Source: Fibrobacterota bacterium (lineage in GTDB: Bacteria > Fibrobacterota > Fibrobacteria > UBA11236). From it: a stretch of DNA of 64,000 bases. Below the pieces are notes generated by a model. The model was not told where the DNA came from, made no database searches, and saw only the letters and a program-made list of their open reading frames with translations. Every line of letters starts with the position of its first letter. Positions within the stretch are counted from its first letter, which is position 1. Made by a program: the position numbers and the translations under genes. Below, piece by piece: positions 2,508 to 15,156 of the stretch. The stretch spans positions 32,001 through 96,000 of the forward strand of contig JAYUVP010000098.1 of NCBI GenBank assembly GCA_043753995.1, given 5' to 3'.

Positions 2508-3086
2508 ATGTCTCCTCGTACCGAACAACAAAACCAAGCGTTGCGTGACAAGACCCGCGCGCGCATCATGGCCGCAGGATTGAAACTTTTCAGCCGCAAA
2601 GGCTATGGCGAAACCTCGGTGCAAAGCCTGGCCCGTGAGGCCAAGGTCGCCCAAGGCCATCTGTACCGGCACTTTTCAAGTAAGTCTGAATTGCTGCGCG
2701 CCTTGATGCAGCAAAGCATGGATGATGTGCGCCAATCCTTTGCGGCAGCCAAGGGCGAAGGCCGTGGCGATCCTCTGCGACGCTTGGTGGAAGAAGCCGT
2801 GAGGCTTTTGCAGCAGCATCTCGAAGCCTGGCAATTGGCCTATGCCATTCGCATGCAAAGCGCCGTGCTCAAGACCCTGGCGCGCGACTTCAATGAGATG
2901 CGGGAAGAAATCGCTTCCTTTTTAATCACCCTTTTTAAAAGGCGGGGTTCTCGTCAACCTGAAGTGGACGCCGCCTTGTTTTTCGCCCAACTCGATGGCC
3001 TGTGTCAACACTATGCCATGAACCCGAAGCATTACCCGCTGGCCGAGCTTGCCGAGGCCTGGATGGCCAAGGAGGAAATAAAATGA
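2508..3086 (+). CDS. TetR/AcrR family transcriptional regulator
   Basis: N-terminal HTH: RARIMAAGLKLFSRKGYGETSVQSLAREAKVAQGHLYRHFSSKSELL. Confidence 0.92.
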   Translation: MSPRTEQQNQALRDKTRARIMAAGLKLFSRKGYGETSVQSLAREAKVAQGHLYRHFSSKSELLRALMQQSMDDVRQSFAAAKGEGRGDPLRRLVEEAVRLLQQHLEAWQLAYAIRMQSAVLKTLARDFNEMREEIASFLITLFKRRGSRQPEVDAALFFAQLDGLCQHYAMNPKHYPLAELAEAWMAKEEIK

Positions 3087-3934
3087 AAATCGTTACGGAA
3101 ATGACACAGCTCGACTCGGGCCGCATTCACAGCCTAAGTATGGGACAAGGTCGACCCTTGCTTTTCATCCATGGCACGCCCACTTCCCATGCCGATTGGC
3201 GGGGGGTGATGTCGAGGCTCGCCGCAAGCCGAAAGTGTATTGCCCCCGATCATTTGGGCTTCGGCCGGTCGGAAAGGCCGGCCCAGGCGGATTATTCACC
3301 GGCTGCGCATGCGAGCCGCTTAGCCCAATGGGTGGAAAAGCAAGGCCTGCAGGACTTCGACCTCGTTGTCCATGATTTTGGTGGACCCATTGCCCTGCCC
3401 CTACTGCGTCAAACCAACCTTCGCATCGGCAAGGTTGTTTTGATCAATACCTGGATGTGGCCACTTATTGAGCACACCGAATTGCGAAGCGCCATTCGCT
3501 TGGCTGCGGGTCCGGTGGGGAAATGGCTTTATCGCCACCTCAATTTTTCTCCGCGCTTTCTCATGCCCATGGCCTATGGGGATCGCAAGAAGCTCGATCG
3601 AGGCATGCACCTCGAAGCTATGAATGCCTTTCAGTCCAAGGAGGATCGAGAACGGGTACTTTGGGCTTTGGCGAAATCGCTGCTTGACGAGACGGGGTTT
3701 AATCAGGAACTTTGGAACTTGCGTGAAGCCTTAAGTCAGCGCCCGGTTTTGCTGGCCTGGGGTGTCAAGGATAGGGCTCTTAATTCGGTGGTTTTAAATA
3801 GGTGGCGAGAATTAAGCCAAGGGAATGGGGGACAAGGCTTTAAGATTCGCACCTATGCCGATGCCGGTCACTGGCCTCAGATCGAAGCGGAGGTCCATGT
3901 GGCAGAAGATATTTCGGCCTTTCTGAAAGATTGA
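3083..3934 (+). CDS. Alpha/beta hydrolase (haloalkane dehalogenase/epoxide hydrolase-like)
   Basis: Motifs HGTP, APDHLGFGRS, VHDFGG (Asp nucleophile) and AGHWPQ. ATGA overlap with the tetR stop; GGAGG RBS. Confidence 0.88.
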   Translation: MKIVTEMTQLDSGRIHSLSMGQGRPLLFIHGTPTSHADWRGVMSRLAASRKCIAPDHLGFGRSERPAQADYSPAAHASRLAQWVEKQGLQDFDLVVHDFGGPIALPLLRQTNLRIGKVVLINTWMWPLIEHTELRSAIRLAAGPVGKWLYRHLNFSPRFLMPMAYGDRKKLDRGMHLEAMNAFQSKEDRERVLWALAKSLLDETGFNQELWNLREALSQRPVLLAWGVKDRALNSVVLNRWRELSQGNGGQGFKIRTYADAGHWPQIEAEVHVAEDISAFLKD

Positions 3935-3965
3935 TTTTTCCTCCTCAGGTAAGCAGAATGAAAGC

Positions 3966-4994
3966 ATGAAAAAGCCCCCGCCCTTCGATCCCCAAACCCT
4001 GGCACTGACCGAATCCCTGTTAGATTCGGCTGGGGTCCAGGGGGATGCCTTTCAGCGTCAATGGATTGGAGAGATGATTCATTCCGTCCTGCAACTCGGC
4101 CTCGATGGGCCCGATTCGGGGGAAGTGAAGCTCATGGCCAGGAGCTTCCGAGAATTGCGACATGCTTTAAATGTCTTCCGGCCTTACAAGGGCCGTAAGA
4201 AAGTGTCCATATTCGGATCGGCGCGCACACCACCGGATCATCCCGATTATCTCTGCGCGCGCGATTTCGCTGCGTCCATGGGAAGGCGGGGTTGGATGTC
4301 CATCACGGGGGCTGGCCCAGGCATCATGCAGGCGGGCAATGAGGGGGCGGGGCCGGGGAATTCCTTCGGGCTGTCCATTCGGCTGCCTTGGGAGACCAAT
4401 GGCAATCCCTTCATCGCCAAAGATTCCAAGTTCATGGTCTTCCGGTATTTCTTCACGCGGAAGCTTCTCTTCGCCTTGGGTGCCGATGCCATGGCAGTTT
4501 TCCCCGGGGGATTTGGCACGCTCGATGAATGCTTCGAGCTGCTGACCTTGATTCAAACCGGCAAATCCCCGCTCCTCCCAATCGTCTTGATTAGCCCGGA
4601 GGGAAATGATTATTGGAAGTCTTTCCGAACCTATATGGAAGACCACTTTGTCCGTAATGGCTGGATCAACCAGGAAGATTTGTTTTTGTTCCAGATCTTC
4701 TCTGACGTGGAAGCCGCATCCGATTATGTGGAACGATTCTACCGGAATTACCACTCGTCCCGATTCGTTGGCGATCAATTCGTGATCCGCATGCAGAAAA
4801 CCCTAAAACCGGAAGAACTTGAGTCCTTGAACGAGGCTCATGCGGGGCTATGCGTCAAGGGCTATATCGACCAGGGAGTGGCCTTGAAAGGGGAAGAGGA
4901 TTTCCTGGATTTGCCCCGCCTGGTTTTCCAATTCAACCGGAAGCATTATGGTGGGCTTCGGCTCATGATTGACCGGCTGAATCAGTTTGGCTGA
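3966..4994 (+). CDS. LOG family (TIGR00730-type) nucleotide phosphoribohydrolase
   Basis: Motifs SIFGSAR, ITGAGPGIMQA, FRYFFTRK and PGGFGTLDE. Confidence 0.9.
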   Translation: MKKPPPFDPQTLALTESLLDSAGVQGDAFQRQWIGEMIHSVLQLGLDGPDSGEVKLMARSFRELRHALNVFRPYKGRKKVSIFGSARTPPDHPDYLCARDFAASMGRRGWMSITGAGPGIMQAGNEGAGPGNSFGLSIRLPWETNGNPFIAKDSKFMVFRYFFTRKLLFALGADAMAVFPGGFGTLDECFELLTLIQTGKSPLLPIVLISPEGNDYWKSFRTYMEDHFVRNGWINQEDLFLFQIFSDVEAASDYVERFYRNYHSSRFVGDQFVIRMQKTLKPEELESLNEAHAGLCVKGYIDQGVALKGEEDFLDLPRLVFQFNRKHYGGLRLMIDRLNQFG

Positions 4995-5025
4995 GAGGGT
5001 TTTGAAAGAGGCTGCGCTTGAATCT

Positions 5026-5835
5026 TTAATAGCCTAACTTTTTAAGGCGCGCTTTCACTTCGCGCGCGTTCCGATAGGGTGGCGCATGGATTTTTCTGAA
5101 GGGACTGGCCCAAAGTTCGGCATGCTCCTTTTCCGAAGCCTCATTGCACCCCACGGTATAGCCGAACCTTTGATTTAGCTTAGATAAAGGTTTCAGTGAA
5201 TCGCCTTTTGCAGCGGTAAGATCGTCAAAAAAGTAGGTATGGTAATAGGTGTCACACCCATTATTACCTCCATGGCTATTGATGGCTGTTCTGATCAAGA
5301 TTCCTATTTCTTGTTTGGGGTCGCGGTCAGCGTTGGCAAAAACCACGGCTTGAATTTCGCCTTTCCCACCTGAGTCTCCAAAGGCTTCCATGGCAAAACG
5401 TCGGCACGCATTCGACCTTTGGTGGGTCGGAACGAAAACGTATCCATTGGTACGGCTCGAAATCTCTGGTTCTGGTGACAAGGAATACTTGATCCAAACC
5501 TTGGTGATCTTTTCATTGAAAAAACCGACAACAATAGGCGTGGAATTCCAAACAGTATCCATAGCCAGCATATACTCTGGCTTCCCATACCAAGTTGTAT
5601 CGGGATCGGTTGGCTTGCTTTTCAAATGCAAAGGGTGGATGACGGGGTCGATTGCATAGACGAAATCCGTATCCCTAATTCCATTGGCAGACGAGGGCTT
5701 GGCTTCGATAATACCGAGAAAAAAAGCCAAGATCATGGCTGTGACGTTGATGAGGTAGCCGTCTTTATAGCAAAGTCTTCCACGATCGGCCTTTTCATAA
5801 GCTATCCGATGAGAGAGAGGCCGGCTGGAGGGCAA
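5026..5835 (-). CDS. Hypothetical, probably secreted protein (true start may be near 5736)
   Basis: Long ORF with a hydrophobic segment MILAFFLGIIEA; NADRDPKQEI resembles an FG-GAP-like loop. Confidence 0.55.
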   Translation of the reverse strand: MPSSRPLSHRIAYEKADRGRLCYKDGYLINVTAMILAFFLGIIEAKPSSANGIRDTDFVYAIDPVIHPLHLKSKPTDPDTTWYGKPEYMLAMDTVWNSTPIVVGFFNEKITKVWIKYSLSPEPEISSRTNGYVFVPTHQRSNACRRFAMEAFGDSGGKGEIQAVVFANADRDPKQEIGILIRTAINSHGGNNGCDTYYHTYFFDDLTAAKGDSLKPLSKLNQRFGYTVGCNEASEKEHAELWASPFRKIHAPPYRNAREVKARLKKLGY

Positions 5836-5917
5836 ATACTTATTCGATATGCGGATGGATTATCGTCCTTTCGATGGCTGTTCTCCTGGCGAGTGGGTTG
5901 CCATGTTTATCTTCAGC

Positions 5918-6844
5918 CTATCCTGGTGCGTTTCCAGCCGGGTCCAAAGCTAATGCATTCCTAGGCACCGCCGCCGCAAAATGGGCCAATAGCCCGACTC
6001 CGAGCCCGCCTAAAACATCCACGGCATAGTGATACCCGCAATATACAGTCGAAGCGATGAGCAGAATTCCCAAGGGCCAGAGCACTACTCTTTCCGGTTT
6101 GTGATGCCATGAAGCCAGCAAGGTGACCGTGGTCAAAGCCACGTGGGCGCTGGGGAAATAGCCACCCGGAATTTCCCACTGGTATAACCAATGCATGATA
6201 GATGTGAAGGCATAACCCGGCATTTCGGTGGGGTGTTGTAAGGCACTGGCAGGCGTAAAATTTGCAAAGGAATGCGGGCCCAAGGCGGGAAGGAAGAGAA
6301 AAAGAAAATTGCAGATGTAAAAGGCGATGCCTATGGCAGCCATGAATCGATGAAATTCGGCGACGCGCTTTTTGCGGTAGTAAAGGACGAGAGCCAATCC
6401 AGCGAACTGGACGTAATAGGTGAAATACGCGAAGTGAAAAATTTCGGAAACCCAGGCCTGTGGCCAAACTTGCGACCACAGCAAGGCAGGTTGAAATCCG
6501 AAAAGCATTTGATCGGCATTGCGAAGAATCATATCCCATTCGAAGGCAACCCAAAACCGGTTCAGGGTTCCTACCTGTTCGTAAATGGGTAAGAAAAAGA
6601 AAAACGGATAAAACAATCGGACAAAGCGTGAAATGGATTGCCCTCTACGCGAATGCTCGTCGTCACCCGAGGGAGATGCGAATCTGCAAATGACATAGGC
6701 GCAGCCAATGGCAAAGGCATTGAAAGCAAAAGGCGCAAGCGGTGCATCCATCGCCCAGGCCCGTACTCCGACGACTAGCAAGACCGCGAAGTGGTAACCG
6801 AAGAATAAGAGGTCGGCGGGAAAAACTCTGAACCCGGCTTTCAA
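5918..6844 (-). CDS. PAP2 family membrane protein, Aur1/IPC-synthase-like (PAP2_3) type
   Basis: Multiple TM helices; motifs PALGP, FPSAHV and STVYCGYHYAVDVLGG; lacks the KxxxxxxRP domain-1 motif. TTG start 3 nt after the upstream stop. Confidence 0.85.
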   Translation of the reverse strand: MKAGFRVFPADLLFFGYHFAVLLVVGVRAWAMDAPLAPFAFNAFAIGCAYVICRFASPSGDDEHSRRGQSISRFVRLFYPFFFFLPIYEQVGTLNRFWVAFEWDMILRNADQMLFGFQPALLWSQVWPQAWVSEIFHFAYFTYYVQFAGLALVLYYRKKRVAEFHRFMAAIGIAFYICNFLFLFLPALGPHSFANFTPASALQHPTEMPGYAFTSIMHWLYQWEIPGGYFPSAHVALTTVTLLASWHHKPERVVLWPLGILLIASTVYCGYHYAVDVLGGLGVGLLAHFAAAVPRNALALDPAGNAPG

Positions 6845-6847
6845 TTT

Positions 6848-8518
6848 TTACCCGCTCAGTCTCGACACGGAAAATGGCTCGGCATAGACTGGAGCGTCGG
6901 ACAAAATGTTCAAGTTTGCTTGGGACTGAATTTCGAATTCGATTTGGAACCAAAGAGCTTGCAATGCTTCGAAGCGTACCTCGCCCATCATACAGATTTG
7001 CAACCAGTTGCGCTTGACGAGATAGTCTCCGGCATAATTGCAGAGCAAGCCGCATTTTTCCAAGCGGCGTCCCAAGCCGAGGGAGGAAATTGATTCGGGG
7101 AATTGCAAGGTGAATATTCCAGGTGCGCGGTTTTCGGTGGCTGCGATCAAAAGGATAGGCGATTCGACCATGCGTTCCATCAGCCACGCGCCCATTTCTT
7201 TGCGCCGGGAAAATAGTCTTGCTTTCGTGGTTTGCAATGCCGCCACAAGGGCTTCCAGAAACACAGAGGAGCCGCTGAAGGGAATGCCATCACAGTCGGC
7301 ATAGTAACGCAATTCGAAATAGCGCGGCTTTGGCGCGGCGGACTTCATTAAGGCTTCGGGACGGTAAAAGACCATGGCCATGCCGGTCAAGGCGCCAATA
7401 GCCTTGCCGCTGACCGAGGAAGCCATGCGCGCGCGGCTAAAGTCGCAGGGGATGGCGCCAAGGGAACTGATAGCGTCCCAATGCGTATGCACGCCATGCC
7501 TATCGCAAAGCGATTGAATAGCCTCCAGCGGTTGCACTTGGCCCGTCGACGTTTCGCAGTGCACGGACCAAAGCCAGCGGATATTCGTATGCGTGCGCAG
7601 GGCCTTTTCCAAGGCGTCGAGCGAGGTGGCGTGCCCCCAGGGCGAACGCAGAATATGAGCATTCAGGTGATGAGCCTCGGCATGCTTGACTAGGCGTTCG
7701 CCGAATTCCCCATTACAGAGAATAATGCCTTCACCTCCGAGTTCGGCGATATGGGCGGCCACCACATCATTGGCCAGAGTCCCCGTGCCCAAGAAAATTT
7801 CAACTGCCTGGCCTTGGGTCATGGCCAGAAGCAGGCGCTTCGCTTTCTGCAATTGAGCAACATAACGTTCGGATCGATGGGAGTATGGGGGCACTTGCAA
7901 GGCTTGTCGAACAGGCTCTTGAACTTCAACGGGGCCAGGCAGGAAGTAATGCTGTGGCACTAATATGTCTGGAGCTTGTCGCAAGGTGTCGGGCAGGAGA
8001 GCTAAATGCCGATTGAGCGAATCGAGTGTCAAGGACATGGGTTGATACATGGCTCCAGGTATGCCGACTTGCGGGCCGAAAGCGAGAAAGCCCAACTTTT
8101 CATAAAGGGGAATATTTTCCAAACGGCCCGAGATGAGGCCTCGGTTGAAACCTTGAACGGTGCTATAAGCAAGGATTTCGTGCATGAGCAAGGCAAAGAC
8201 GCGCCCATGCCGGCGACTGGGCTCTATCGCGAGGAGCCTGATTTCACACAGCGAATCTCCTGGTTTCAAAAACACATCAAGGTTGTCGAGCTTGGAGTCC
8301 AGAGAAAAGGGCCGCTGATTGCGCAAGGCCACCATGCCTGCAATTTCGTCTCCGTCTTTGCAAATGAAATAGAGGTTTTCCCGGTGGAATTTATCGACAA
8401 GGCGCCGATCGGTATTGCGGGCATGCTGAGGAATTTCTTCGACAAAGGTGGCATAATTCAGTCGCGCGATGCGATCGAATTCATCCGCTTGATCGGCAAT
8501 TTTCACAATCAGACTCAT
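6848..8518 (-). CDS. Fusion of GNAT-fold N-acyltransferase and class V PLP aminotransferase
   Basis: N-terminal ~165 aa: LNYATFVEEIPQH, CEIRLLAI, LYEKLGFLAFG. C-terminal: FLPGPV, GTGTLAND, VHCETSTG, DAISSLG, SVSGKAIGA (PLP lysine). Confidence 0.88.
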   Translation of the reverse strand: MSLIVKIADQADEFDRIARLNYATFVEEIPQHARNTDRRLVDKFHRENLYFICKDGDEIAGMVALRNQRPFSLDSKLDNLDVFLKPGDSLCEIRLLAIEPSRRHGRVFALLMHEILAYSTVQGFNRGLISGRLENIPLYEKLGFLAFGPQVGIPGAMYQPMSLTLDSLNRHLALLPDTLRQAPDILVPQHYFLPGPVEVQEPVRQALQVPPYSHRSERYVAQLQKAKRLLLAMTQGQAVEIFLGTGTLANDVVAAHIAELGGEGIILCNGEFGERLVKHAEAHHLNAHILRSPWGHATSLDALEKALRTHTNIRWLWSVHCETSTGQVQPLEAIQSLCDRHGVHTHWDAISSLGAIPCDFSRARMASSVSGKAIGALTGMAMVFYRPEALMKSAAPKPRYFELRYYADCDGIPFSGSSVFLEALVAALQTTKARLFSRRKEMGAWLMERMVESPILLIAATENRAPGIFTLQFPESISSLGLGRRLEKCGLLCNYAGDYLVKRNWLQICMMGEVRFEALQALWFQIEFEIQSQANLNILSDAPVYAEPFSVSRLSG

Positions 8519-9048
8519 AGGCGTGACTCCGGGTCCGAGACGTTTTTTTCAGAGGGATTGGATTGCCAAGTCAGTCGGTTCTTCGCCAAATGCGATCGGT
8601 GAGCGAAAAGGACGAGGGCCAGGGTGGCGAGGCACGCGCCGATGACCGAAAGTGCATGGCCGCTGAAATGAATCCGCGGACTATAGATGGCCAAGGCAAG
8701 GGCTCCGCCCGCGGCAACCGACACACCTTTGCCACCGCGAAAACCCATTTGAACCGGGTAAATATGCCCGATGACAAGGCATGGCAAAGACCAAAAGACA
8801 TGGGCCGAATGCGGAACTAAGGCCAAACCAAAAGCGATACCCGCCCAAGCCTTAAGGAAGTCGCCAGCAAAGGTGACAGTAAAGCCGGATGGCCCTAAGA
8901 GTCGCCCGACATTGCGCGCGCCTGTCGATCCGCTACCGAATTCACGTATGTCTTGGCGACGCGTGAGGCGCACCCAGTAATAGCCCGTATTGAAGCAGCC
9001 TAAGGCATAGGCGGCAAGCCAGGCGAGGGCATGCAGGGTTTCGCTCAT
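8515..9048 (-). CDS. plsY: PlsY-family acyltransferase (short, divergent)
   Basis: Motifs DIREFGSGSTGARNVGR, GDFLKA and GHIYPVQMGFRGGKGVS. Start at ATG 9048 overlaps the upstream stop (ATGA). Confidence 0.8.
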   Translation of the reverse strand: MSETLHALAWLAAYALGCFNTGYYWVRLTRRQDIREFGSGSTGARNVGRLLGPSGFTVTFAGDFLKAWAGIAFGLALVPHSAHVFWSLPCLVIGHIYPVQMGFRGGKGVSVAAGGALALAIYSPRIHFSGHALSVIGACLATLALVLFAHRSHLAKNRLTWQSNPSEKNVSDPESRL

Positions 9049-9587
9049 GGGGAATGGAAGGAGTAAACTTCGCCCCACACCGGCCTCACCGGGACATGCC
9101 CCACATAACCGCGGCGGATCAAGCGCTGTTGGAGGTATTGCATGAGGAAGCCATGGGTCACGAGAAGGATGTTTTGCGAAGTATGCATTTCCTCTAATTC
9201 GTCCAGCAAGGCGTCAAGGCGCTGAAAAGTCTGCTCACGATTTTCGGTTTGTGAAGGGTGGGGAAGACGCCAACCGAGGCGACTCAAGGCTTGCCAAGCC
9301 AATAGAGGCAAGGGTATTTCGGTTTTGAAAAGGGGTGCAAAAGGCACTTCGCGCAAGGACTCGTGGACCGCGATGTCGCCGTGGAACAATGCCTGGGCCG
9401 TCTTGTGCGCCCGCGGCAAATCACTGCTATAACAGATGTCCCAGCCTTTGAGCGGTTTTAAAACCAAGGGTATTGCGACATCAAAGCGATCATACCATTG
9501 CGACCAATCGACAAAGCCCCGGCTATTCATCCATTGGTATTGGGGGTGCGGTATGCGGAAATGGCGCATCAAGCCTAGGGTATTCAT
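9045..9587 (-). CDS. Histidine phosphatase family protein
   Basis: Motifs LMRH(F), YSSDLPRAHKTA, LREVPF and LLVTHG. Start taken at ATG 9587. Confidence 0.82.
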   Translation of the reverse strand: MNTLGLMRHFRIPHPQYQWMNSRGFVDWSQWYDRFDVAIPLVLKPLKGWDICYSSDLPRAHKTAQALFHGDIAVHESLREVPFAPLFKTEIPLPLLAWQALSRLGWRLPHPSQTENREQTFQRLDALLDELEEMHTSQNILLVTHGFLMQYLQQRLIRRGYVGHVPVRPVWGEVYSFHSP

Positions 9588-9662
9588 AAGATTCGGAATA
9601 TAGGACGCATCCAAGTCGGTAGGTGTTCCCAAACCCTCCACACCTTATCGGTGGCGATCGAA

Positions 9663-9979
9663 TTACTTCATTTCTCGAAGAAATTTGAGCGCTGCCCCAT
9701 GTTGGCTTAGAATATCCCCGCTGATATAAACCGAAATGGCCGCCTTGCGCGGAGGGAAACCAATCCGAAGCCAGTCCACGTCCCTCCCCGAAGTCGGGCT
9801 CTTAAGTTTGACTAGGCCAAAACCAATGAGGGAGGTACCCCACATTCTCGGTTCTTCCATGCTGGCCTTCTTCATCATTTCTAAAAGCGCAAAACTATCC
9901 TAGCGCTGTTGCACGCCTTTTACGCAATGAGAAATTTCTCAACGCTGGCGCCATTCGGCTTGGTTTTGTTTTCGGCCAT
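9663..9979 (-). pseudogene. DUF1801/YdhG-like gene, degraded
   Basis: AGGAG then ATG 9979 gives MAENKTKPNGASVEKFLIA*. A frameshifted continuation reads VKGVQQR*DSFALLEMMKKASMEEPRMWGTSLIGFG...IGFPPRKAAISVY; the 3' end is truncated. Confidence 0.75.
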
Positions 9980-10150
9980 CGAATTCTCCTAAACGATCCA
10001 TTTGACCAAGGTAAAAAATCATGGTGGCAGCCTTAGGGTAATACCCCATTTCAGCGGCCCCGAAGTGAAGCGACCTTAGTTTCCGTATTCGCCCTTGTTT
10101 CGGAACCTGAATTCGCAGGTGCAATCCAGGAAGGGAAATAGGTTCCAATT

Positions 10151-12313
10151 ATGCAAACCGAAACCTTGATCGCATCCGTAGAGACAGTCAACTCCAAAAA
10201 AATTTCCGTCGGCAATCCGGATATTCTCGGTGCTCGGATTACGGAAACAGGCGTCAATTTCGCGATTGCCTCCCGCAATGCCACCGAAGTTTTTCTTGTC
10301 TTATTCGATGAAGCCGGAGGATCCCCCACCGATACTATCCCCATGCAGGGAAGGACGAACGATGTTTGGCATATGCATATCGAAGGCCTAGTGCAGGGGC
10401 AAATGTATGCCTATCGCGTCAATGGTCCCTATGATCCAGACAATGGTTTTCGCTTCAATCCTTACAAATTGCTGATCGATCCTTATGCCAAAGCCTTTAC
10501 AGGGAAATTCAACAATCCGGACAACCTTCTGCTCGCCTATGACAGCAATTCGGAGCAGAAGGATTTGGTGATGGATACGCGCGATAATGCTGCCGTGGTT
10601 CCGGAATGCATTGTCTGGGACGATGCCTTCGACTGGGAAGGCGTCGAAAAGCCCGGCATCCCTCAAGAGAAGCTGGTGATCTATGAAGTGCATGTCAAGG
10701 GTTTCACGGCCCACCCCTCTTCCAAGGTGAAGCACCCCGGAACTTATTTGGGATTCATCGAAAAAATCCCTTACTTGAAAGAGCTCGGCATTAACGCGGT
10801 AGAACTGCTCCCCATCCATGAATTCGTATGCGAGGATTTTCTCAAGGAAAAAGGGCTTTCGAACTATTGGGGGTATAACACTATCGGATTTTTTGCGCCT
10901 GAATCCTCCTATTCCACCCAGAAAACTTCAGGCTGTGCCATCAATGAATTCAAGACCTTGGTCAAGGAACTGCATAAAGCGGGAATCGAAGTCATTCTCG
11001 ATGTCGTCTACAATCATAGTGCCGAAGGCAATGAATGCGGACCGACGCTCTCCTTCAAGGGGATAGACAATACGGAATATTACTCGCTATGCGGTGACGA
11101 GAACGCTCCCAAGCGCTATTACAGAAATTTTTCGGGTACCGGAAATACATTGAATGCTAGCAGTCCGATCTTTAGTCGCTTAACCTTGGATTCACTTCAT
11201 TACTGGGCTGAGGTCATGCAAGTGGATGGCTTTCGCTTTGATTTAGCGGCCTCCCTGGGGCGCGACCACAACGGTACTTTTTTGGCTGATGGGCATTTGC
11301 TTGGGCAGATTACCAATGACCCGGTGCTTAATAAACTGAAACTAATTGCTGAGCCTTGGGACATGGAAGCCTATGAAGTCGGTAGCTTGCCTTTGGGCTG
11401 GTCGGAATGGAATGGGAAATTCCGTGACAATTTCCGCAAATTCGCCAAAGGGGATGCTGGACAAGTGCAAAAAATCAGCACCCACATCGCCGGATCCCCG
11501 GATCTGTTCGCGCACAATGGCCGTAGTGCCAGCGACAGCATCAACTTTCTCACCTGCCATGACGGTTTCACCTTGTACGATCTGGTTTCATTCAATGAAA
11601 AGCATAATGAGGCGAATCTCGAAAACAACAAAGATGGCGCAAATGACAATCACTCTTGGAATCATGGCGCGGAAGGAGAGACGGAGGACCAGGAGATCAT
11701 GGATCTTCGCAAGCGGCAGGTGAAAAATCTTTTTTGCTACCAGATGTTCTCAATCGGAACACCCATGATTTCCGCTGGGGACGAATTCATGCGCACACAA
11801 AACGGCAACAATAATGTTTATACACAGGACAATGCGCTTTCCTGGTTGGATTGGGATCGACGAGCCGAGAATGAAGATATGGTCTCCTTCGTGCGGAACT
11901 TGCTCGGGTTCCGGAATCGGCATGCGATACTGCAAAGGCCCCGCTTCTTTCTGGGGAATGACAAGTCAGGCGATGGCATTCCCGACATTCATTGGATAGG
12001 CCCGGACAGCGACGCTGTCGATTGGGAGAATGGGGAATTGCGATGCCTGGGATTCCAAGTGGACGGCAGAGAATCCGAAAATGTCGGCGCTGCGGAATGG
12101 GATTACCGCCTATTCATCGTATTCAATGCGGAGACAGACTCGCGCATCTTCCTGCTGCCCCCATTGGAAAACGAAAAGACCTGGCATAGGGTCATCGACA
12201 CCGTCCTTGCCCCGGGCGAAGACTTCATGGAGCAAGGTCAGGAAGTCCCCATCAAGGATTCATGCTACCAGGTAAGCGGGAGAAGCTGTGTCGTTTTGAA
12301 ATCTATTTCTTGA
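10151..12313 (+). CDS. glgX: Glycogen debranching enzyme (isoamylase, GH13 with CBM48)
   Basis: Motifs LLIDPYAK, YEVHVKGFT, NYWGYNT, DVVYNH, DGFRFDLA, IAEPWD and NFLTCHDGFTLYDLVS. Confidence 0.96.
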   Translation: MQTETLIASVETVNSKKISVGNPDILGARITETGVNFAIASRNATEVFLVLFDEAGGSPTDTIPMQGRTNDVWHMHIEGLVQGQMYAYRVNGPYDPDNGFRFNPYKLLIDPYAKAFTGKFNNPDNLLLAYDSNSEQKDLVMDTRDNAAVVPECIVWDDAFDWEGVEKPGIPQEKLVIYEVHVKGFTAHPSSKVKHPGTYLGFIEKIPYLKELGINAVELLPIHEFVCEDFLKEKGLSNYWGYNTIGFFAPESSYSTQKTSGCAINEFKTLVKELHKAGIEVILDVVYNHSAEGNECGPTLSFKGIDNTEYYSLCGDENAPKRYYRNFSGTGNTLNASSPIFSRLTLDSLHYWAEVMQVDGFRFDLAASLGRDHNGTFLADGHLLGQITNDPVLNKLKLIAEPWDMEAYEVGSLPLGWSEWNGKFRDNFRKFAKGDAGQVQKISTHIAGSPDLFAHNGRSASDSINFLTCHDGFTLYDLVSFNEKHNEANLENNKDGANDNHSWNHGAEGETEDQEIMDLRKRQVKNLFCYQMFSIGTPMISAGDEFMRTQNGNNNVYTQDNALSWLDWDRRAENEDMVSFVRNLLGFRNRHAILQRPRFFLGNDKSGDGIPDIHWIGPDSDAVDWENGELRCLGFQVDGRESENVGAAEWDYRLFIVFNAETDSRIFLLPPLENEKTWHRVIDTVLAPGEDFMEQGQEVPIKDSCYQVSGRSCVVLKSIS

Positions 12314-12548
12314 AAATCTCGATCCAAATCGATCCGGGCTCTTCGTCATCGATTTTCCCGTTGATCTGCCAATAGGCATTATCAAAAATCCGATACTCCT
12401 GGCCATCGGCAATATTCCGAAACGAATCGTTTTTAATGCGATGGATAACATTCGGATCTGCGACAATCTGATAACTTCTCTTGATTTCGACTAACAAGTT
12501 ATCCAATCCCGGGTCGACAGGGATCAATTCAAGCATGATGGATTTCAT
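12303..12548 (-). CDS. Small hypothetical protein
   Basis: 81-aa ORF convergent with and overlapping the glgX stop; no family recognised. Confidence 0.35.
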   Translation of the reverse strand: MKSIMLELIPVDPGLDNLLVEIKRSYQIVADPNVIHRIKNDSFRNIADGQEYRIFDNAYWQINGKIDDEEPGSIWIEIFKK

Positions 12549-12671
12549 ATCCGATCAAGGTAAAAATCGTAGCGGTATCCATAGGGTAAGACCCCATTCC
12601 AGCAATCACGACATGAAGCGAACTTACTTGCCATGTTTGCCAATTCGCAAAAGGCATAAAAGATTCACGGG

Positions 12672-12962
12672 CTGGCCTGGGAGGGACATAAAGTGATGAA
12701 GCATTTACTGATAGAGCTGGAAGCCAACGGGAAGAGCAAAAAACAGTGGGGGGCGAAATTGTATGTCAAAACGGAAACCACCTGGCATCACGTCCAAGAG
12801 GAAGAGGAAATCCTTTTCAAGAAATGCATGAATGTGTTTTCCAAAGCGGAAGCGGAGGAAATCGGCAGGGAAATCCAGGCCTTCAAAAACGGCAAATCCC
12901 AAGTACCCGCTTCGATACCTGAAATAAAACCATTGGAAAGCCAAGATGAAAAAAAACCATAA
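12672..12962 (+). pseudogene. C-terminal remnant of a hemerythrin (HHE) domain protein
   Basis: LAWEGHKVMKHLLIELE...WGAKL...HHVQEEEEILFKK...EAEEIG matches the second half of HHE proteins; the N-terminal half is absent. Confidence 0.6.
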
Positions 12963-15156
12963 AACCACAACGACGCCTCCAGTGGAGCAGCCGGATCTCA
13001 AGTCACAGGATCTCCAACCCTATTGCGAAGATGGGACCGATACCTTGCTGACCACCAATCAAGGCCTCAAGATCAATGACAATCAGAATTCCCTGAAGGC
13101 CGGGGAGCGTGGCCCCACCTTGCTCGAAGATTTCATCCTGCGGGAAAAGATCACCCATTTCGATCATGAGCGCATCCCCGAGCGCATTGTGCATGCGCGC
13201 GGGGCCGCGGCCCATGGCTTTTTTCAGGTTTACGAATCAATGCGAAAGTACACCAAGGCGGGTTTCCTCGCGGATCCTTCGATCAAGACTCCGGTTTTCG
13301 CGCGCTTTTCCACGGTGGCTGGTTCTCGCGGTTCTGCCGATTTGGCCCGTGATGTACGCGGGTTTGCCGTCAAGTTCTATACCCAAGAAGGCAATTATGA
13401 TCTGGTCGGTAATAATATGCCCGTCTTCTTTATCCAGGACGCCATCAAATTCCCGGATCTCGTCCATGCTGTGAAACCGGAGCCGCATCGCGAGATTCCG
13501 CAAGCCTCTTCGGCCCACGATACCTTTTGGGATTTCATTTCCCTCATGCCGGAATCGACCCACATGATTATGTGGTTGATGTCGGACCGTGCCATCCCCC
13601 GCAGCTACCGCATGATGGAGGGGTTCGGCGTGCATACCTTCCGTTTCGTGAATGAGGCCGGCGAAGCTCATTTCGTCAAGTTCCATTGGAAGCCTTTATT
13701 GGGCGTGCATTCCGTGGTTTGGGACGAGGCCCAGAAAATTTCCGGAAAGGATCCGGATTTTCACCGGCGCGATCTCTGGGATGCCATTGAGAACGGGGAT
13801 TTCCCGGAATGGGAACTCGGCGTGCAAATCGTCGAGGAGAAGGATGAATTCAAATTCGCCTTCGACTTGCTTGATCCGACCAAGCTGATTCCGGAAGAAG
13901 AAGTCCCTGTGATGCGCATCGGCAAGATGACCTTAAACCGTAATCCCGATAACTTTTTCGCGGAAACGGAGCAGGTTGCCTTCCATCCCGGCCATATTGT
14001 TCCTGGCATCGACTTTTCCAACGATCCCTTATTGCAAGGGCGACTCTTTTCCTATACCGATACCCAACTCAAGCGACTCGGCAGCCCCAATTTCCATGAG
14101 ATACCCATTAACCGCCCGGTTACCCCCGTGCATAATAATCAGCGCGACGGCATGATGCGCCAGGCTATTAATACGGGCAAGGTCAGCTATGAACCGAACA
14201 CCCTGGGTGGAGGATGCCCCATGCAGGCCAAGGCCGGCATGGGTGGATTCGTCAGCCATGTCGAAAAAGTGGACGGCAATAAAATTCGTGCCCGTAGCGA
14301 AAGCTTTTTCGATCATTTCAGCCAGGCGACCTTGTTTTATCATAGCCAGTCGCAACCGGAGAAAGATCATATTGTCCGAGCCTTCTGTTTCGAGTTGGGC
14401 AAGGTGGAAGTTTTGGCCATCCGCGAGCGCATGGTGCACATTCTTGGCTTGGTCGATAAAGGCTTGGCCACCAAGGTGGCTTCGGGGCTGGGAATCCAAT
14501 TGCCAGTTAAGATAGACCCGCCCTTGAATCGCAGCATTCCGGCCGATGGCGATCCCAAGGATTTCCAACCGATGTCGGGAAAGTATTTGCCAAAGAGCGA
14601 GGAGACGTTTTCTTCCGCACTTAGCATGGAGCATACCGTCAAGGGGATCAAAACCCGGAAGGTAGCGCTATTGATGGTCGACGGATTCGATGATGAGGAA
14701 GTAGCGCTGGTAGAAAAAATGTTGATGGAGGCCGGCGCCCAGACCATGATAGTGGCCCCTCACCTGGGGACCCTGAAAAGCGCTAAGGGCGTTGAACTCA
14801 CTATTGATTTCAGCTTGCTGACAGCGGCTTCCGTTCTCTTCGACGCCCTTTATATTCCCGGCTCGACTAATCCCGTGGCGCTCATGGGTGAGCCCGATGC
14901 GCTCGAATTCATCCGTGATGCCTTCAAGCATTGCAAGACCATCGGAGCCAATGTAGCGAGCGAAGGGGTGCTGCGCGCTGCGGACAAGGCTTTGGATAGG
15001 CTGGTGGGAGTCGAGTCCAAAACCCCGGAAAAAATCTTTTCCCAGAAGGGTGTCGTGGTGGGGACTACGAAGGAACTCAAGGTATTTGTTCCGGAATTCA
15101 TTAAGGAGATGGGGGAGGGTCGGCATTGGATTCGGGAGGCGGACAAGCCGCTTTGA
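12946..15156 (+). CDS. katE: Catalase HPII (large subunit, clade 2) with C-terminal DJ-1/GATase-like domain
   Basis: Motifs FDHERIPERIVHARG, RFSTVAGSRGS and RLFSYTDTQ; 736 aa. Confidence 0.97.
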   Translation: MKKNHKTTTTPPVEQPDLKSQDLQPYCEDGTDTLLTTNQGLKINDNQNSLKAGERGPTLLEDFILREKITHFDHERIPERIVHARGAAAHGFFQVYESMRKYTKAGFLADPSIKTPVFARFSTVAGSRGSADLARDVRGFAVKFYTQEGNYDLVGNNMPVFFIQDAIKFPDLVHAVKPEPHREIPQASSAHDTFWDFISLMPESTHMIMWLMSDRAIPRSYRMMEGFGVHTFRFVNEAGEAHFVKFHWKPLLGVHSVVWDEAQKISGKDPDFHRRDLWDAIENGDFPEWELGVQIVEEKDEFKFAFDLLDPTKLIPEEEVPVMRIGKMTLNRNPDNFFAETEQVAFHPGHIVPGIDFSNDPLLQGRLFSYTDTQLKRLGSPNFHEIPINRPVTPVHNNQRDGMMRQAINTGKVSYEPNTLGGGCPMQAKAGMGGFVSHVEKVDGNKIRARSESFFDHFSQATLFYHSQSQPEKDHIVRAFCFELGKVEVLAIRERMVHILGLVDKGLATKVASGLGIQLPVKIDPPLNRSIPADGDPKDFQPMSGKYLPKSEETFSSALSMEHTVKGIKTRKVALLMVDGFDDEEVALVEKMLMEAGAQTMIVAPHLGTLKSAKGVELTIDFSLLTAASVLFDALYIPGSTNPVALMGEPDALEFIRDAFKHCKTIGANVASEGVLRAADKALDRLVGVESKTPEKIFSQKGVVVGTTKELKVFVPEFIKEMGEGRHWIREADKPL

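Follow-up and report, generated by a model that had tools for sequence, protein, structure and literature searches.

What product does an operon make in which a paralogue of a glycerol-3-phosphate acyltransferase lies next to an N-acyl synthase fused to an aminotransferase? Such an operon is found in a 64,000-nucleotide stretch of contig JAYUVP010000098.1 (hereafter the window), which comes from a metagenome bin of an uncultured sediment bacterium of the Fibrobacterota (genome G000). Four consecutive minus-strand open reading frames are tightly packed at positions 5918–9587, and encode a histidine phosphatase, a PlsY paralogue (PlsY2), the fusion protein and a PAP2_3 membrane protein. ATGA overlaps at 9045–9048 and 8515–8518 and a 3-nt gap at 6845–6847, all read directly in the sequence, point to co-translation of the four genes. 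An earlier note on this DNA had described the same arrangement and proposed that these genes build membrane lipids on serinol (2-amino-1,3-propanediol). The arrangement is confirmed, and Pfam profile matches agree with the identities given there to the four genes (phosphatase, PlsY, GNAT/class-V aminotransferase fusion and PAP2_3); both the gene identities and the translational coupling of the operon are shown here.

The fusion (6848–8518, minus strand) consists of a FeeM/GNAT-type N-acyl synthase domain (approximately residues 1–185, 7964–8518) followed by a class-V PLP aminotransferase domain (approximately residues 186–556, 6848–7963). It matches the Pfam families FeeM (41.1 bits), Acetyltransf_5 (PF13444, 31.7 bits), Acetyltransf_1 (27.5 bits) and Aminotran_5 (37.3 bits). 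These matches agree with the domain identities suggested by the earlier note, and the combination of FeeM, Acetyltransf_5 and Aminotran_5 is the architecture of a large family: the best 120 matches all have at least 92% coverage and are 509–577 aa long, and the nearest Atlas clusters, mostly from Bacillota and Verrucomicrobiota, carry the same three domains. At one related locus (L011) the FeeM domain is a separate gene. Of 151 genomes sampled in the phylum to which the window belongs, G000 is the only one in which the full fusion was detected.

The earlier note had also mentioned two-domain N-acyl serinol synthases from gut Bacilli. One of these, hm-NAS of Gemella haemolysans, was reportedly described by Cohen et al. 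in 2017 in Nature 549:48, and it is presumed to have the two-domain architecture of the window fusion, a FeeM-type domain with a fused class-V aminotransferase. Compared by description only, hm-NAS resembles the window fusion in its PF13444/FeeM-type N-acyl synthase domain, which belongs to a Bacillota-rich family. The two differ in setting, the window fusion sharing its operon with a PlsY paralogue, a phosphatase and PAP2_3, and in product: that of Gemella is reportedly an amide secreted for signalling, whereas a membrane phospholipid is predicted here. As for the product, the claim is borne out by a published report, according to which the G. haemolysans nas gene alone causes E. coli to make N-oleoyl serinol, while wild-type E. 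coli has no detectable N-acyl amides (PMC13012048).

Transamination of dihydroxyacetone phosphate (DHAP) to serinol phosphate, on which the earlier proposal relied, is documented for RtxA of Bradyrhizobium elkanii (PMC3222319) and Cj1437 of Campylobacter jejuni (PMC11800397). The window aminotransferase is likened to these enzymes by its proposed reaction and not by its sequence; they feed toxin and capsule decoration, whereas the window enzyme is proposed to serve lipids. Judged by sequence, its domain is closest to AGXT and PhnW enzymes rather than to a proven DHAP transaminase. Among NCBIfam models, PhnW-AepZ scores highest (134 bits against a cut-off of 360.8), and the domain falls well short of every cut-off for PhnW and AGXT equivalogs. 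Among solved structures, AGT (1vjo) and PhnW (7e7g and 1m32) come nearest, and no PDB match of the domain bears the name of RtxA or Cj1437. S370-G371-K372 is the same in all 18 family members compared, and Q507 is invariant in the family, where 1vjo, 7e7g and 1m32 have an arginine, suggesting a pocket distinct from that of AGT and PhnW. We infer that the domain would act as a DHAP-to-serinol-phosphate transaminase.

PlsY2 (8515–9048, minus strand, 177 aa) is a divergent, shortened PlsY paralogue. It matches G3P_acyltransf (PF02660) with 92.8 bits over profile positions 2–117 of 164 only, and scores 72 and 67 bits with the PlsY equivalogs, whose cut-offs are 199 and 137. A canonical, full-length PlsY is encoded elsewhere in G000 (contig C291, 177 bits). 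Such a canonical copy is also present in all four of the other genomes with an adjacent PlsY2, and the canonical PlsY is the sole copy in the single genome checked that has no adjacent PlsY2. In a quick tree, six canonical PlsYs from four phyla separate from the PlsY2s (SH-aLRT 93). The AlphaFold2 model of the window protein (pLDDT 91.9) has PlsY 5xj5 as its sole Foldseek match (E 2e-5, TMq 0.68). With this enzyme of Aquifex aeolicus (5XJ5; PMC5700162) PlsY2 shares the fold, the motif-1 loop, H92, the GGKG loop with K104, R45 and H177; it differs in being a second copy beside a canonical one, in missing the equivalog cut-offs and in its synteny with, or fusion to, an N-acyl synthase.

Residue counts over 51 distinct PlsY2 sequences (gaps excluded; site roles from PMC5700162) indicate that the phosphate clamp is mostly kept (S35 in 48/49, R45 in 49/49, K104 in 47/51 and N180 in 35/47), as is H177 (46/51). 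S142, which binds the 2-OH in PlsY, is glycine in 35 of 48; T41, the acyl-carbonyl binder, is arginine in 33 of 49; and N37 is retained in just 19 of 49, T41 and N37 both being important for canonical PlsY catalysis (PMC5700162). PlsY2 is thus a dedicated second PlsY copy with an altered acceptor pocket. The retained clamp together with the changes at the C2 site fits an acceptor such as serinol phosphate or its N-acyl form, and we propose that PlsY2 is the O-acyltransferase for one of these. The window copy retains S35, N42, R45, H92, K104 and H177 (Aquifex numbering) and carries N37S, T41R and N180H; the S142 region is deleted, and in the TMH5–6 region the protein lacks ~33 residues that its relatives have. 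In Aquifex PlsY, N180H nearly abolished activity and T41A was severely damaging (PMC5700162), and the window PlsY2 could be impaired by its deletion and N180H. Similar deletions occur in three separate PlsY2 branches (the window, L018/L019 and L035), suggesting a tolerated short form.

Of 78 informative loci, which come from several phyla, 53 have PlsY2 immediately upstream of the fusion and on the same strand. These comprise 9 of the 12 loci from genomes and 44 of the 66 informative ones from metagenomes (80 loci, 14 of which were left out as having too little upstream DNA). A single open reading frame of Elusimicrobium posterum (L012:4443–5534) encodes both PlsY2 and the FeeM domain. In an evenly drawn Planctomycetota sample, PlsY2 adjoins the fusion in one of five genomes with the full fusion, and at least three genomes carry PlsY2-like paralogues with the fusion neither adjoining nor detected in the genome. 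The histidine phosphatase and PAP2_3 were found in 0 of 92 related loci, and scans of 73 and 128 neighbour open reading frames turned up neither PAP2 nor His_Phos families. Synteny across phyla is thus seen for the PlsY2–fusion pair, and the four-gene order is not broadly conserved; the extension of the pair by a phosphatase and PAP2_3 is new here.

The first of these additions, the histidine phosphatase (branch 1; 9045–9587, minus strand, 180 aa from its ATG), matches His_Phos_1 (PF00300) with 50.9 bits against a cut-off of 21.7 and has the N-terminal motif RHFRIPH. A longer open reading frame with a GTG start extends to 9641; homologues in two genomes of the same family (G102 and G142) begin at the ATG position (9587). 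CobC-type equivalogs score far under their cut-offs. The homologues, 47% identical, share the R-H, PRA, REV and THG motifs and adjoin MMPL transporters. We searched both genomes for the fusion and for a PAP2_3 homologue and found neither, and the phosphatase may be a resident gene. Its proposed role is to strip the phosphate from serinol phosphate or acylated serinol phosphate.

The PAP2_3 protein (5918–6844, minus strand, 308 aa) matches PF14378 (70.7 bits), PAP2 (30.8 bits) and, just under its cut-off of 27, PAP2_C (26.2 bits). Its N-terminus, from a TTG start, is kept in homologues P0122 and P0287. P231-S232-H234, H272 and D276 are invariant in the protein and its homologues, so that the catalytic His/His/Asp is in place, and the C2 and C3 catalytic residues are those of eukaryotic Aur1/IPC- and sphingomyelin-synthase-type PAP2 enzymes; no K/R-P C1 motif is present. 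A match to undecaprenyl-diphosphate phosphatase was weak (23 bits against a cut-off of 229). The subfamily has a link to sphingolipid genes: in G016 a 40%-identical homologue closes a cluster of serine palmitoyltransferase (Spt), a 396-aa GNAT-like protein, SDR and PAP2_3, and Spt and/or a GNAT-like gene stands alongside the homologue in 8 of the best 20 Planctomycetota loci. Elsewhere in the window's own family the subfamily was found in 0 of 11 genomes and, in the phylum, in just one other of 151 sampled genomes, where it lies within a sphingolipid cluster. Fusions 80% and 72% identical share both their source and the length of the longest contig (5838 and 15598) with PAP2_3 proteins 67% and 63% identical, a hint that two close relatives may keep PAP2_3 together with the fusion. 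We propose that the protein transfers a phospho-head group onto the free hydroxyl of acylated serinol; alternatively, it could be a lipid-phosphate phosphatase. A literature search found no activity for any bacterial member of this subfamily.

The bacterial sphingolipid pathway (Spt/bCerS/CerR; PMC11087976) offers a parallel, as in both systems a PLP enzyme would supply an amino-alcohol backbone, a GNAT-type enzyme would N-acylate it and a PAP2_3 enzyme would follow. Unlike that pathway, G000 has no long-chain base or reductase step and no Spt could be recognised in it; the alpha-oxoamine synthases that score best resemble BioF and CqsA. The window backbone would be the C3 serinol, with the second chain ester-linked via PlsY2.

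Our best reading of the operon, a tentative one that falls somewhat short of an even chance, is a route from DHAP through serinol phosphate, N- and O-acylation and dephosphorylation to the addition of a head group. The aminotransferase domain would convert DHAP to serinol phosphate, which is glycerol 3-phosphate with an amino group in place of the 2-hydroxyl; the fused FeeM/GNAT domain, judging by its family, would N-acylate the amine from acyl-ACP; and PlsY2 would esterify the free hydroxyl with acyl-phosphate made by PlsX, which is present in G000. The phosphatidic acid analogue N,O-diacylserinol phosphate would result from the acylations, in either order. In this lineage, two further genes would then finish the lipid in the manner of a ceramide: the histidine phosphatase would take the phosphate off the acylated serinol phosphate, and PAP2_3, with a glycerophospholipid as donor, would place a phospho-alcohol head group on the freed hydroxyl, much as sphingomyelin and IPC synthases work. 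A precedent for the late phosphatase step is found in C. jejuni, where the (S)-serinol phosphate of Cj1437 is coupled first and the phosphate is then removed, with a dedicated phosphatase, Cj1435 (PMC11800397). It should be noted that we infer all substrates and products of this pathway, including the order of acylation and the role of the phosphatase.

The operon might instead make only single-chain N-acyl serinol-type amides for signalling or as surfactants. In that case the window PlsY2 would be a remnant that is decayed or has no catalytic role, and the two phosphatase-type genes would dephosphorylate N-acyl-serinol phosphate, or PAP2_3 would decorate N-acyl serinol directly. We consider this unlikely. 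It is consistent with the action of the Gemella nas gene by itself in E. coli, with the ~33-residue deletion, N180H, T41R and N37S in the window PlsY2 and the damage done by N180H and T41A in the Aquifex enzyme, and with the 25 of 78 informative loci and four of five Planctomycetota fusion genomes that have no PlsY2 beside the fusion, which suggest that the fusion works without PlsY2. However, the PlsY2 open reading frame is intact and shares ATGA overlaps with both neighbours, its model is confident and PlsY-like, its short form seems tolerated in three branches, and S35, N42, R45, K104, H92 and H177 are kept; two phosphatases would also be redundant for one dephosphorylation.

It is similarly improbable that only the PlsY2–fusion pair is functional and that the phosphatase and PAP2_3 are housekeeping neighbours sharing a transcript by chance, the one perhaps a generic phosphatase, the other an enzyme that dephosphorylates lipid phosphates or undecaprenyl pyrophosphate. 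Their absence beside the pair in all 92 related loci, the 47%-identical phosphatase homologues of relatives in which no such pair was detected, and the frequency of phosphatases among PAP2 enzymes, with the weak 23-bit match, would fit this view; against it stand the overlaps and the 3-nt gap, the rarity of the PAP2_3 subfamily in the family and phylum, the two relatives in which fusion and PAP2_3 seem to travel together, and the lack of a recognisable Spt in G000 to supply ceramide. Quite unlikely, in our view, is a different N-acyl aminolipid in which the backbone amine is 2-aminoethylphosphonate, an amino acid or an amino sugar phosphate and PlsY2 acts on glycerol 3-phosphate or another acceptor. 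The best curated matches of the aminotransferase domain, to PhnW-AepZ and AGXT-type enzymes, agree with such a backbone, as does the glutamine where AGT and PhnW have arginine, yet the PhnW and AGXT cut-offs are all missed widely. Moreover, a clamp-bearing paralogue of a glycerol-3-phosphate acyltransferase should need an acceptor with a phosphate and a free hydroxyl; by this chemical reasoning serinol phosphate would qualify, whereas aminoethylphosphonate lacks the free hydroxyl and phosphoserine a free hydroxymethyl. The only tested nas gene presumed to be of this architecture yields serinol amides.

Overall, the serinol-lipid pathway suggested by the earlier note stands in part: the fusion family, the PlsY2 synteny and the sphingolipid link of PAP2_3 argue for it, but the four-gene order is not broadly conserved. 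The claim that serinol phospholipids have been isolated agrees with a publication on the serinophospholipids of the thermophilic Verrucomicrobium Limisphaera ngatamarikiensis (Vyssotski et al. 2025, J Nat Prod 88:373), which reportedly describes their chemistry. These belong to the same class as the product predicted here, a phospholipid with an acylated serinol backbone, and our literature search found no gene assignment for them. If our reading is true, the operon gives genes to a newly discovered class of phospholipids, built on a backbone of serinol and not of glycerol.

The four genes are consecutive on the minus strand and packed as the earlier note had described: a histidine phosphatase (9045-9587), a PlsY homologue (hereafter PlsY2, 8515-9048), a 556-residue fusion of a FeeM/GNAT N-acyl synthase with a class-V aminotransferase (6848-8518), and a PAP2_3 protein with a TTG start (5918-6844). 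ORF calls gave this order, and direct reading of the sequence gave two ATGA overlaps (9045-9048 and 8515-8518) and a 3-nt spacer at 6845-6847. The phosphatase was taken from an ATG (it begins MNTLGLMRHF), the position at which two homologues also start, while a longer GTG-initiated ORF extends to 9641. Pfam bore out the families assigned in that note (His_Phos_1, G3P_acyltransf, FeeM/Acetyltransf_5/Aminotran_5 and PAP2_3), and none of the four proteins reached a curated NCBIfam equivalog cut-off. The GC content of the genes (0.48-0.56) is the same as that of their flanks, and in composition there is no sign of recent transfer. Among sequencing runs, two DNA runs of one sediment-metagenome study contain this DNA and may be its source, and no RNA run was listed as containing it. 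A promoter and terminator scan of 4900-10200 returned chance-level counts (4 vs 3.9 expected and 6 vs 8.3 expected), and an Rfam search of the window returned no match. One ORF lies on each side of the operon on the same strand: a 269-residue ORF (5026-5835) 82 nt downstream, without a Pfam or NCBIfam match, and a 71-residue ORF (9663-9878) 75 nt upstream of the phosphatase ATG, without a Pfam match. By annotation, nothing at 2508-4994 or 10151-15156 relates to the operon: a TetR regulator, an alpha/beta hydrolase and a LOG/TIGR00730-family protein were recognised there, together with what we judged by eye to be a glycogen-debranching-type enzyme and a large catalase on the other side of the operon.

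Profile searches confirmed the acyl synthase half of the fusion, which exceeds the cut-offs of both FeeM (41.1 bits, cut-off 27) and Acetyltransf_5 (PF13444; 31.7 bits, cut-off 22.4), but left its C-terminal domain below every PhnW equivalog cut-off (TIGR03301, 134.2 bits of the 360.8 required; TIGR02326, 92.7 of 400.8; NF010006, 86.9 of 296). Aminotran_5 matches residues 214-392 with 37.3 bits, and the PhnW-AepZ model covers residues 193-522. Relatives of the fusion are numerous (3981 of 8000 scored candidates at E <= 0.001), and the best 120 of these matches all cover at least 92% of the query and are 509-577 residues long. The nearest Atlas clusters combine FeeM, Acetyltransf_5 and Aminotran_5, most often in Bacillota and Verrucomicrobiota; homologues that are 48-49% identical bear Fibrobacterota names. 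In an alignment of 18 members, residues 370-372 are an invariant S-G-K, presumably the position of the class-V PLP lysine. The nearest solved structures to the aminotransferase domain, AGT (1vjo) and PhnW (7e7g, 1m32), all have an Arg, within an xFR(I/V)G motif, where the fusion has an invariant Gln (Q507). We take this Arg to bind the acidic group of the substrate; if so, its replacement by Gln points to a specialised aminotransferase pocket. Residues 195-552 of another structure, PDB 9os7 (555 residues), match the aminotransferase half of the fusion profile with 109 bits. This entry is labelled a methionine-tRNA ligase, which is odd for such a protein, and its first ~190 residues have no match to the FeeM half.

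A similar arrangement has been reported from gut bacteria. Cohen and colleagues reportedly described in 2017 a two-domain nas product from Gemella with a C-terminal aminotransferase, and we take the presence of that domain in the same polypeptide to be the defining architecture of hm-NAS of the Gemella type. On this architecture, the fusion and the Gemella hm-NAS share a PF13444/FeeM domain followed by a C-terminal aminotransferase. As an indirect experimental precedent, expression of a nas gene from Gemella haemolysans in E. coli yields N-oleoyl serinol, while N-acyl amides are undetectable in the wild type (PMC13012048). Transamination of DHAP to serinol phosphate is likewise an established activity, of RtxA in Bradyrhizobium (PMC3222319) and of Cj1437 in Campylobacter (PMC11800397).

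PlsY2 is a dedicated paralogue of PlsY. It scores 92.8 bits with PF02660 (cut-off 24.1), matching only profile positions 2-117 of 164, and falls below the PlsY equivalogs NF001254 (72.2 bits, cut-off 199) and TIGR00023 (67 bits, cut-off 137.2). The genome of the window has a canonical PlsY encoded on a different contig (177 bits with Pfam, full profile), and it also encodes PlsX, which supplies acyl-phosphate. A higher-scoring canonical PlsY was found elsewhere in all four genomes checked that have an adjacent PlsY2 (165-187 vs 105-131 bits), and we therefore rejected the possibility that the operon gene is the housekeeping copy. In Undibacterium danionis, where the fusion has no adjacent PlsY2, the canonical PlsY is the only copy. 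In a quick maximum-likelihood tree of 52 PlsY rows, remaining after removal of 4 partial and 4 duplicate rows, six canonical sequences from four phyla group apart from the operon-linked ones (SH-aLRT 93); the PlsY of L028, a locus with a fusion relative, is weakly placed beside the canonical group.

The acceptor pocket offers a clue to the substrate. In the Aquifex enzyme, S35, R45, K104 and N180 clamp the phosphate of glycerol-3-phosphate (G3P), S142 and H177 bind its 2-hydroxyl, T41 and H92 bind the acyl-phosphate, and N37 stabilises the oxyanion (PMC5700162). We counted these positions in 51 distinct PlsY2 sequences, excluding gaps and using Aquifex numbering. The phosphate clamp is kept at S35 (48/49), R45 (49/49), K104 (47/51, the other four having Arg) and N180 (35/47), and the 2-hydroxyl binder H177 is kept in 46 of 51. 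S142, the second 2-hydroxyl binder, is Gly in 35 of 48, the acyl-phosphate binder T41 is Arg in 33 of 49, and N37 is kept in only 19 of 49. As the six canonical PlsYs have Ser (four) or Ala (two) at position 142, the contrast with PlsY2 at this site is a majority pattern and not an absolute one. Because the clamp is mostly kept while the surroundings of C2 are altered, the acceptor would still be held by its phosphate but would differ near C2. We infer that serinol phosphate, free or N-acylated, would suit this description, and that a phosphonate or an amino acid would not. A predicted complex of PlsY2 with the FeeM domain scored 0.01, which is informative neither way.

The earlier note had proposed a survey of neighbourhoods for co-occurrence of the fusion with plsY and PAP2_3; at the related loci collected, such co-occurrence was partial for plsY and was not found for PAP2_3. 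Two sets of loci were collected: 12 came from named genomes (Undibacterium, other Burkholderiales/Oxalobacteraceae, Phycisphaerae, other Planctomycetota and Elusimicrobium posterum), and 80 came from metagenomes and were found by two peptide patterns; the latter are the best 80 of at least 568 relatives and hence a biased sample. Immediately before the fusion, and on its strand, a PlsY-like gene is present in 9/12 genome and 44/80 metagenome loci. It is missing despite at least 650 nt of upstream sequence in 3 genome and 22 metagenome loci, and a further 14 metagenome loci are too short to tell; that is, a PlsY-like gene is directly upstream in 53 of 78 informative loci and not in 25. The genes also vary in their joins: in E. 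posterum a PlsY-like part and the FeeM domain form a single 363-residue ORF, followed by a gene for the aminotransferase, and at L011, another locus with fusion relatives, both fusion domains are separate genes. Neither the phosphatase nor PAP2_3 was found at any of the 92 related fusion loci (phmmer, E <= 1e-3), and no member of their Pfam families (PAP2/His_Phos) appeared among the neighbouring ORFs scanned, which were 73 of the 120 at the genome loci and 128 of the 239 listed for the metagenome loci.

Among 151 sampled genomes of the window's own phylum, only that of the window encodes the full fusion. Five of 151 evenly drawn Planctomycetota genomes encode it, with PlsY2 adjoining in one (G153); the other four have a single PlsY-family match each and nothing PlsY-like near the fusion. 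At least three Planctomycetota genomes carry PlsY2-like paralogues (145-165 bits with the PlsY2 profile) in unrelated neighbourhoods, and in these the fusion was found neither beside the PlsY2-like gene nor anywhere in the genome. A strict pairing of PlsY2 with the fusion was rejected, as each was found without the other in the Planctomycetota sample. Evidently the fusion is able to work on its own, and other partners are possible for PlsY2-like enzymes. Three such PlsY2-like genes of Planctomycetota (L110:3362-5426, L111:3267-3860 and L114:3432-4004) have no N-acyl synthase or aminotransferase nearby, and one of them is directly upstream of tpiA-secG.

Individual loci differ in their surroundings. 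In U. danionis (L009) and U. amnicola (L010), the fusion stands behind the same sigma-54 two-component genes, preceded by PlsY2 in L010 and by a 118-nt gap without it in L009, a clean presence/absence pair in cultured strains of one genus. At the metagenome locus L029 (873-4465), the genes run from cytidylate kinase through a PlsC-type acyltransferase and PlsY2 to the fusion, which sets the pair among core phospholipid genes. Beside this upstream PlsC-type gene, lipid-type neighbours at other fusion loci include an Aas-like AMP-binding/acyltransferase protein (L069), a fatty-acid hydroxylase (L074), GDSL lipases (L064) and an acyl-ACP thioesterase (L012); MFS transporters occur near the fusion in L016 and L020.

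The phosphatase and the PAP2_3 protein have other associations. The phosphatase (PF00300, 50.9 bits, cut-off 21.7) belongs to branch 1 of its superfamily and has the motifs RHF, PRA, REV and THG, conserved in two homologues, which we take to be the catalytic Arg-His, the second Arg, the Glu and the His. Homologues that are 47% identical and share an RHFxIPH start occur in two genomes of the window's family, directly downstream of MMPL transporters (L100:5403-8358 and L101:5183-8068); searches of both genomes found no fusion and no homologue of PAP2_3. The phosphatase may be a resident gene to which the other three were added, and the MMPL neighbourhood hints at a lipid-related role for its subfamily.

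The PAP2_3 protein (PF14378, 70.7 bits, cut-off 27; PAP2, 30.8; PAP2_C, 26.2, just under its cut-off of 27) is matched elsewhere only in G016, at 40% identity, across the 151 genomes sampled from the phylum. There it closes a four-gene cluster (L102:7856-12422) that runs from a serine palmitoyltransferase (Spt; NF047600, 619.6 bits, cut-off 640) through a 396-residue protein and an SDR to PAP2_3. The 396-residue protein has no Pfam or NCBIfam match, its nearest Atlas clusters are GNAT acetyltransferases, and it is a candidate ceramide synthase. Spt, acyltransferase and reductase constitute the logic of bacterial ceramide synthesis (PMC11087976), and the cluster resembles that pathway in having an Spt, a GNAT-like acyltransferase and an SDR in series. 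The subfamily profile also has matches in 46 of the 151 sampled Planctomycetota genomes; among the best 20 of these loci, 8 have an Spt and/or GNAT-like gene alongside, 4 of them with an SDR too. The Spt/396-residue/SDR/PAP2_3 cluster recurs, in whole or in part, in Planctomycetota at L117, L122, L125, L126, L128, L129, L131 and L133. No Spt is recognisable in the genome of the window: of its two alpha-oxoamine synthases, one matches BioF best (347 bits) and the other is CqsA-like (298 bits), and on Spt models they reach ~200 bits. Given a subfamily found in ceramide clusters and a genome without a recognisable Spt, a ceramide-cluster enzyme here follows genes for a putative N-acylated C3 amino-alcohol. 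The link with the fusion appears to persist in two close relatives, which is suggestive and not proof: a fusion 80% identical (P0002) and a PAP2_3 protein 67% identical (P0287) are both from JGI (longest contig 5838), and a second such pair, 72% (P0003) and 63% identical (P0122), is from Logan (longest contig 15598).

These observations can be arranged into a pathway. DHAP would be transaminated to serinol phosphate, to which the FeeM domain would add an N-acyl chain and PlsY2 an O-acyl chain, in either order, to give a phosphatidic acid analogue. The phosphate would then be taken off by the histidine phosphatase, leaving a neutral, ceramide-like diacylserinol, onto which PAP2_3 would move a phospho-alcohol head group from a glycerophospholipid. 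We put this four-gene scheme at slightly under an even chance; the narrower proposal, that the PlsY2-fusion pair builds acylated serinol or serinol-phosphate lipids, seems to us more probable. A further reading, tentative and on balance doubtful, is that the pair represents the missing serinophospholipid genes, joined here to a sphingolipid-type PAP2_3 to make ceramide-mimicking phospholipids without Spt. PlsY2 would then be an O-acyltransferase for serinol phosphate (or N-acyl-serinol-phosphate) evolved from the G3P enzyme, and the operon would be an independent, modular route to sphingolipid-like membranes.

Three of the proposed steps could be read differently. PAP2_3 could be a lipid-phosphate phosphatase. 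In this protein P231, S232, H234, H272 and D276 are invariant in 18/18 aligned sequences and presumably correspond to the catalytic PAP2 motifs C2 (S-x-H, with P231) and C3 (H-x-x-x-D), and the Lys/Arg-Pro C1 motif was not found in the aligned subfamily. The company of Spt and GNAT-like genes makes the subfamily a candidate bacterial phosphosphingolipid head-group transferase, the role that the four-gene scheme assigns to it. Similarly, soluble serinol phosphate could be the substrate of the histidine phosphatase; the late dephosphorylation of our scheme has a parallel in C. jejuni, where Cj1435 removes the phosphate after coupling (PMC11800397). Lastly, the short PlsY2 of the window could be inactive. 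Its TMH5-6 region is short by ~33 residues, the position of S142 among them, and it has His in place of N180, a substitution that nearly abolishes activity in the Aquifex enzyme (PMC5700162). It has S35, R45, K104 and H177, and in the acyl-phosphate site it keeps H92 and the GGKG of Loop3 (H95 and K107, nearly invariant in alignment A2), with T41 changed to Arg and N37 to Ser. Similar deletions occur in the PlsY2s of L018/L019 and L035, on other branches of the tree, and the AlphaFold2 model (pLDDT 91.9) matches PlsY structures only (5xj5, TMq 0.68). On these features the protein may be either functional or impaired.

Each part of the operon belongs to a known family, and both N-acyl serinol and serinophospholipids have been described before. 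Phospholipid backbones were long held to be glycerol or sphingoid bases, and a serinol backbone, a third class, was reportedly described chemically in 2025 (in J Nat Prod). In the literature searched, which covered few subscription journals, we found no genes assigned to serinol-backbone phospholipids, and no paper tying N-acyl serinol or serinophospholipids to a PlsY paralogue or PAP2_3. No Limisphaera name appears among the best 120 matches to the Verrucomicrobia homologue P0114, most of which are nameless, and a 2026 Limisphaera paper does not mention lipids.

If the proposal is true, the operon would provide a directly testable four-gene recipe for serinol-backbone lipids, for which cultured Undibacterium strains with (L010) and without (L009) PlsY2 offer an immediate natural comparison. 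It would add a new substrate class to the PlsY family, and a PAP2_3 subfamily widespread in the sphingolipid clusters of Planctomycetota would receive its first assigned function. It would also tie the "N-acyl serinol" signalling amides of the gut to the biosynthesis of membrane lipids.
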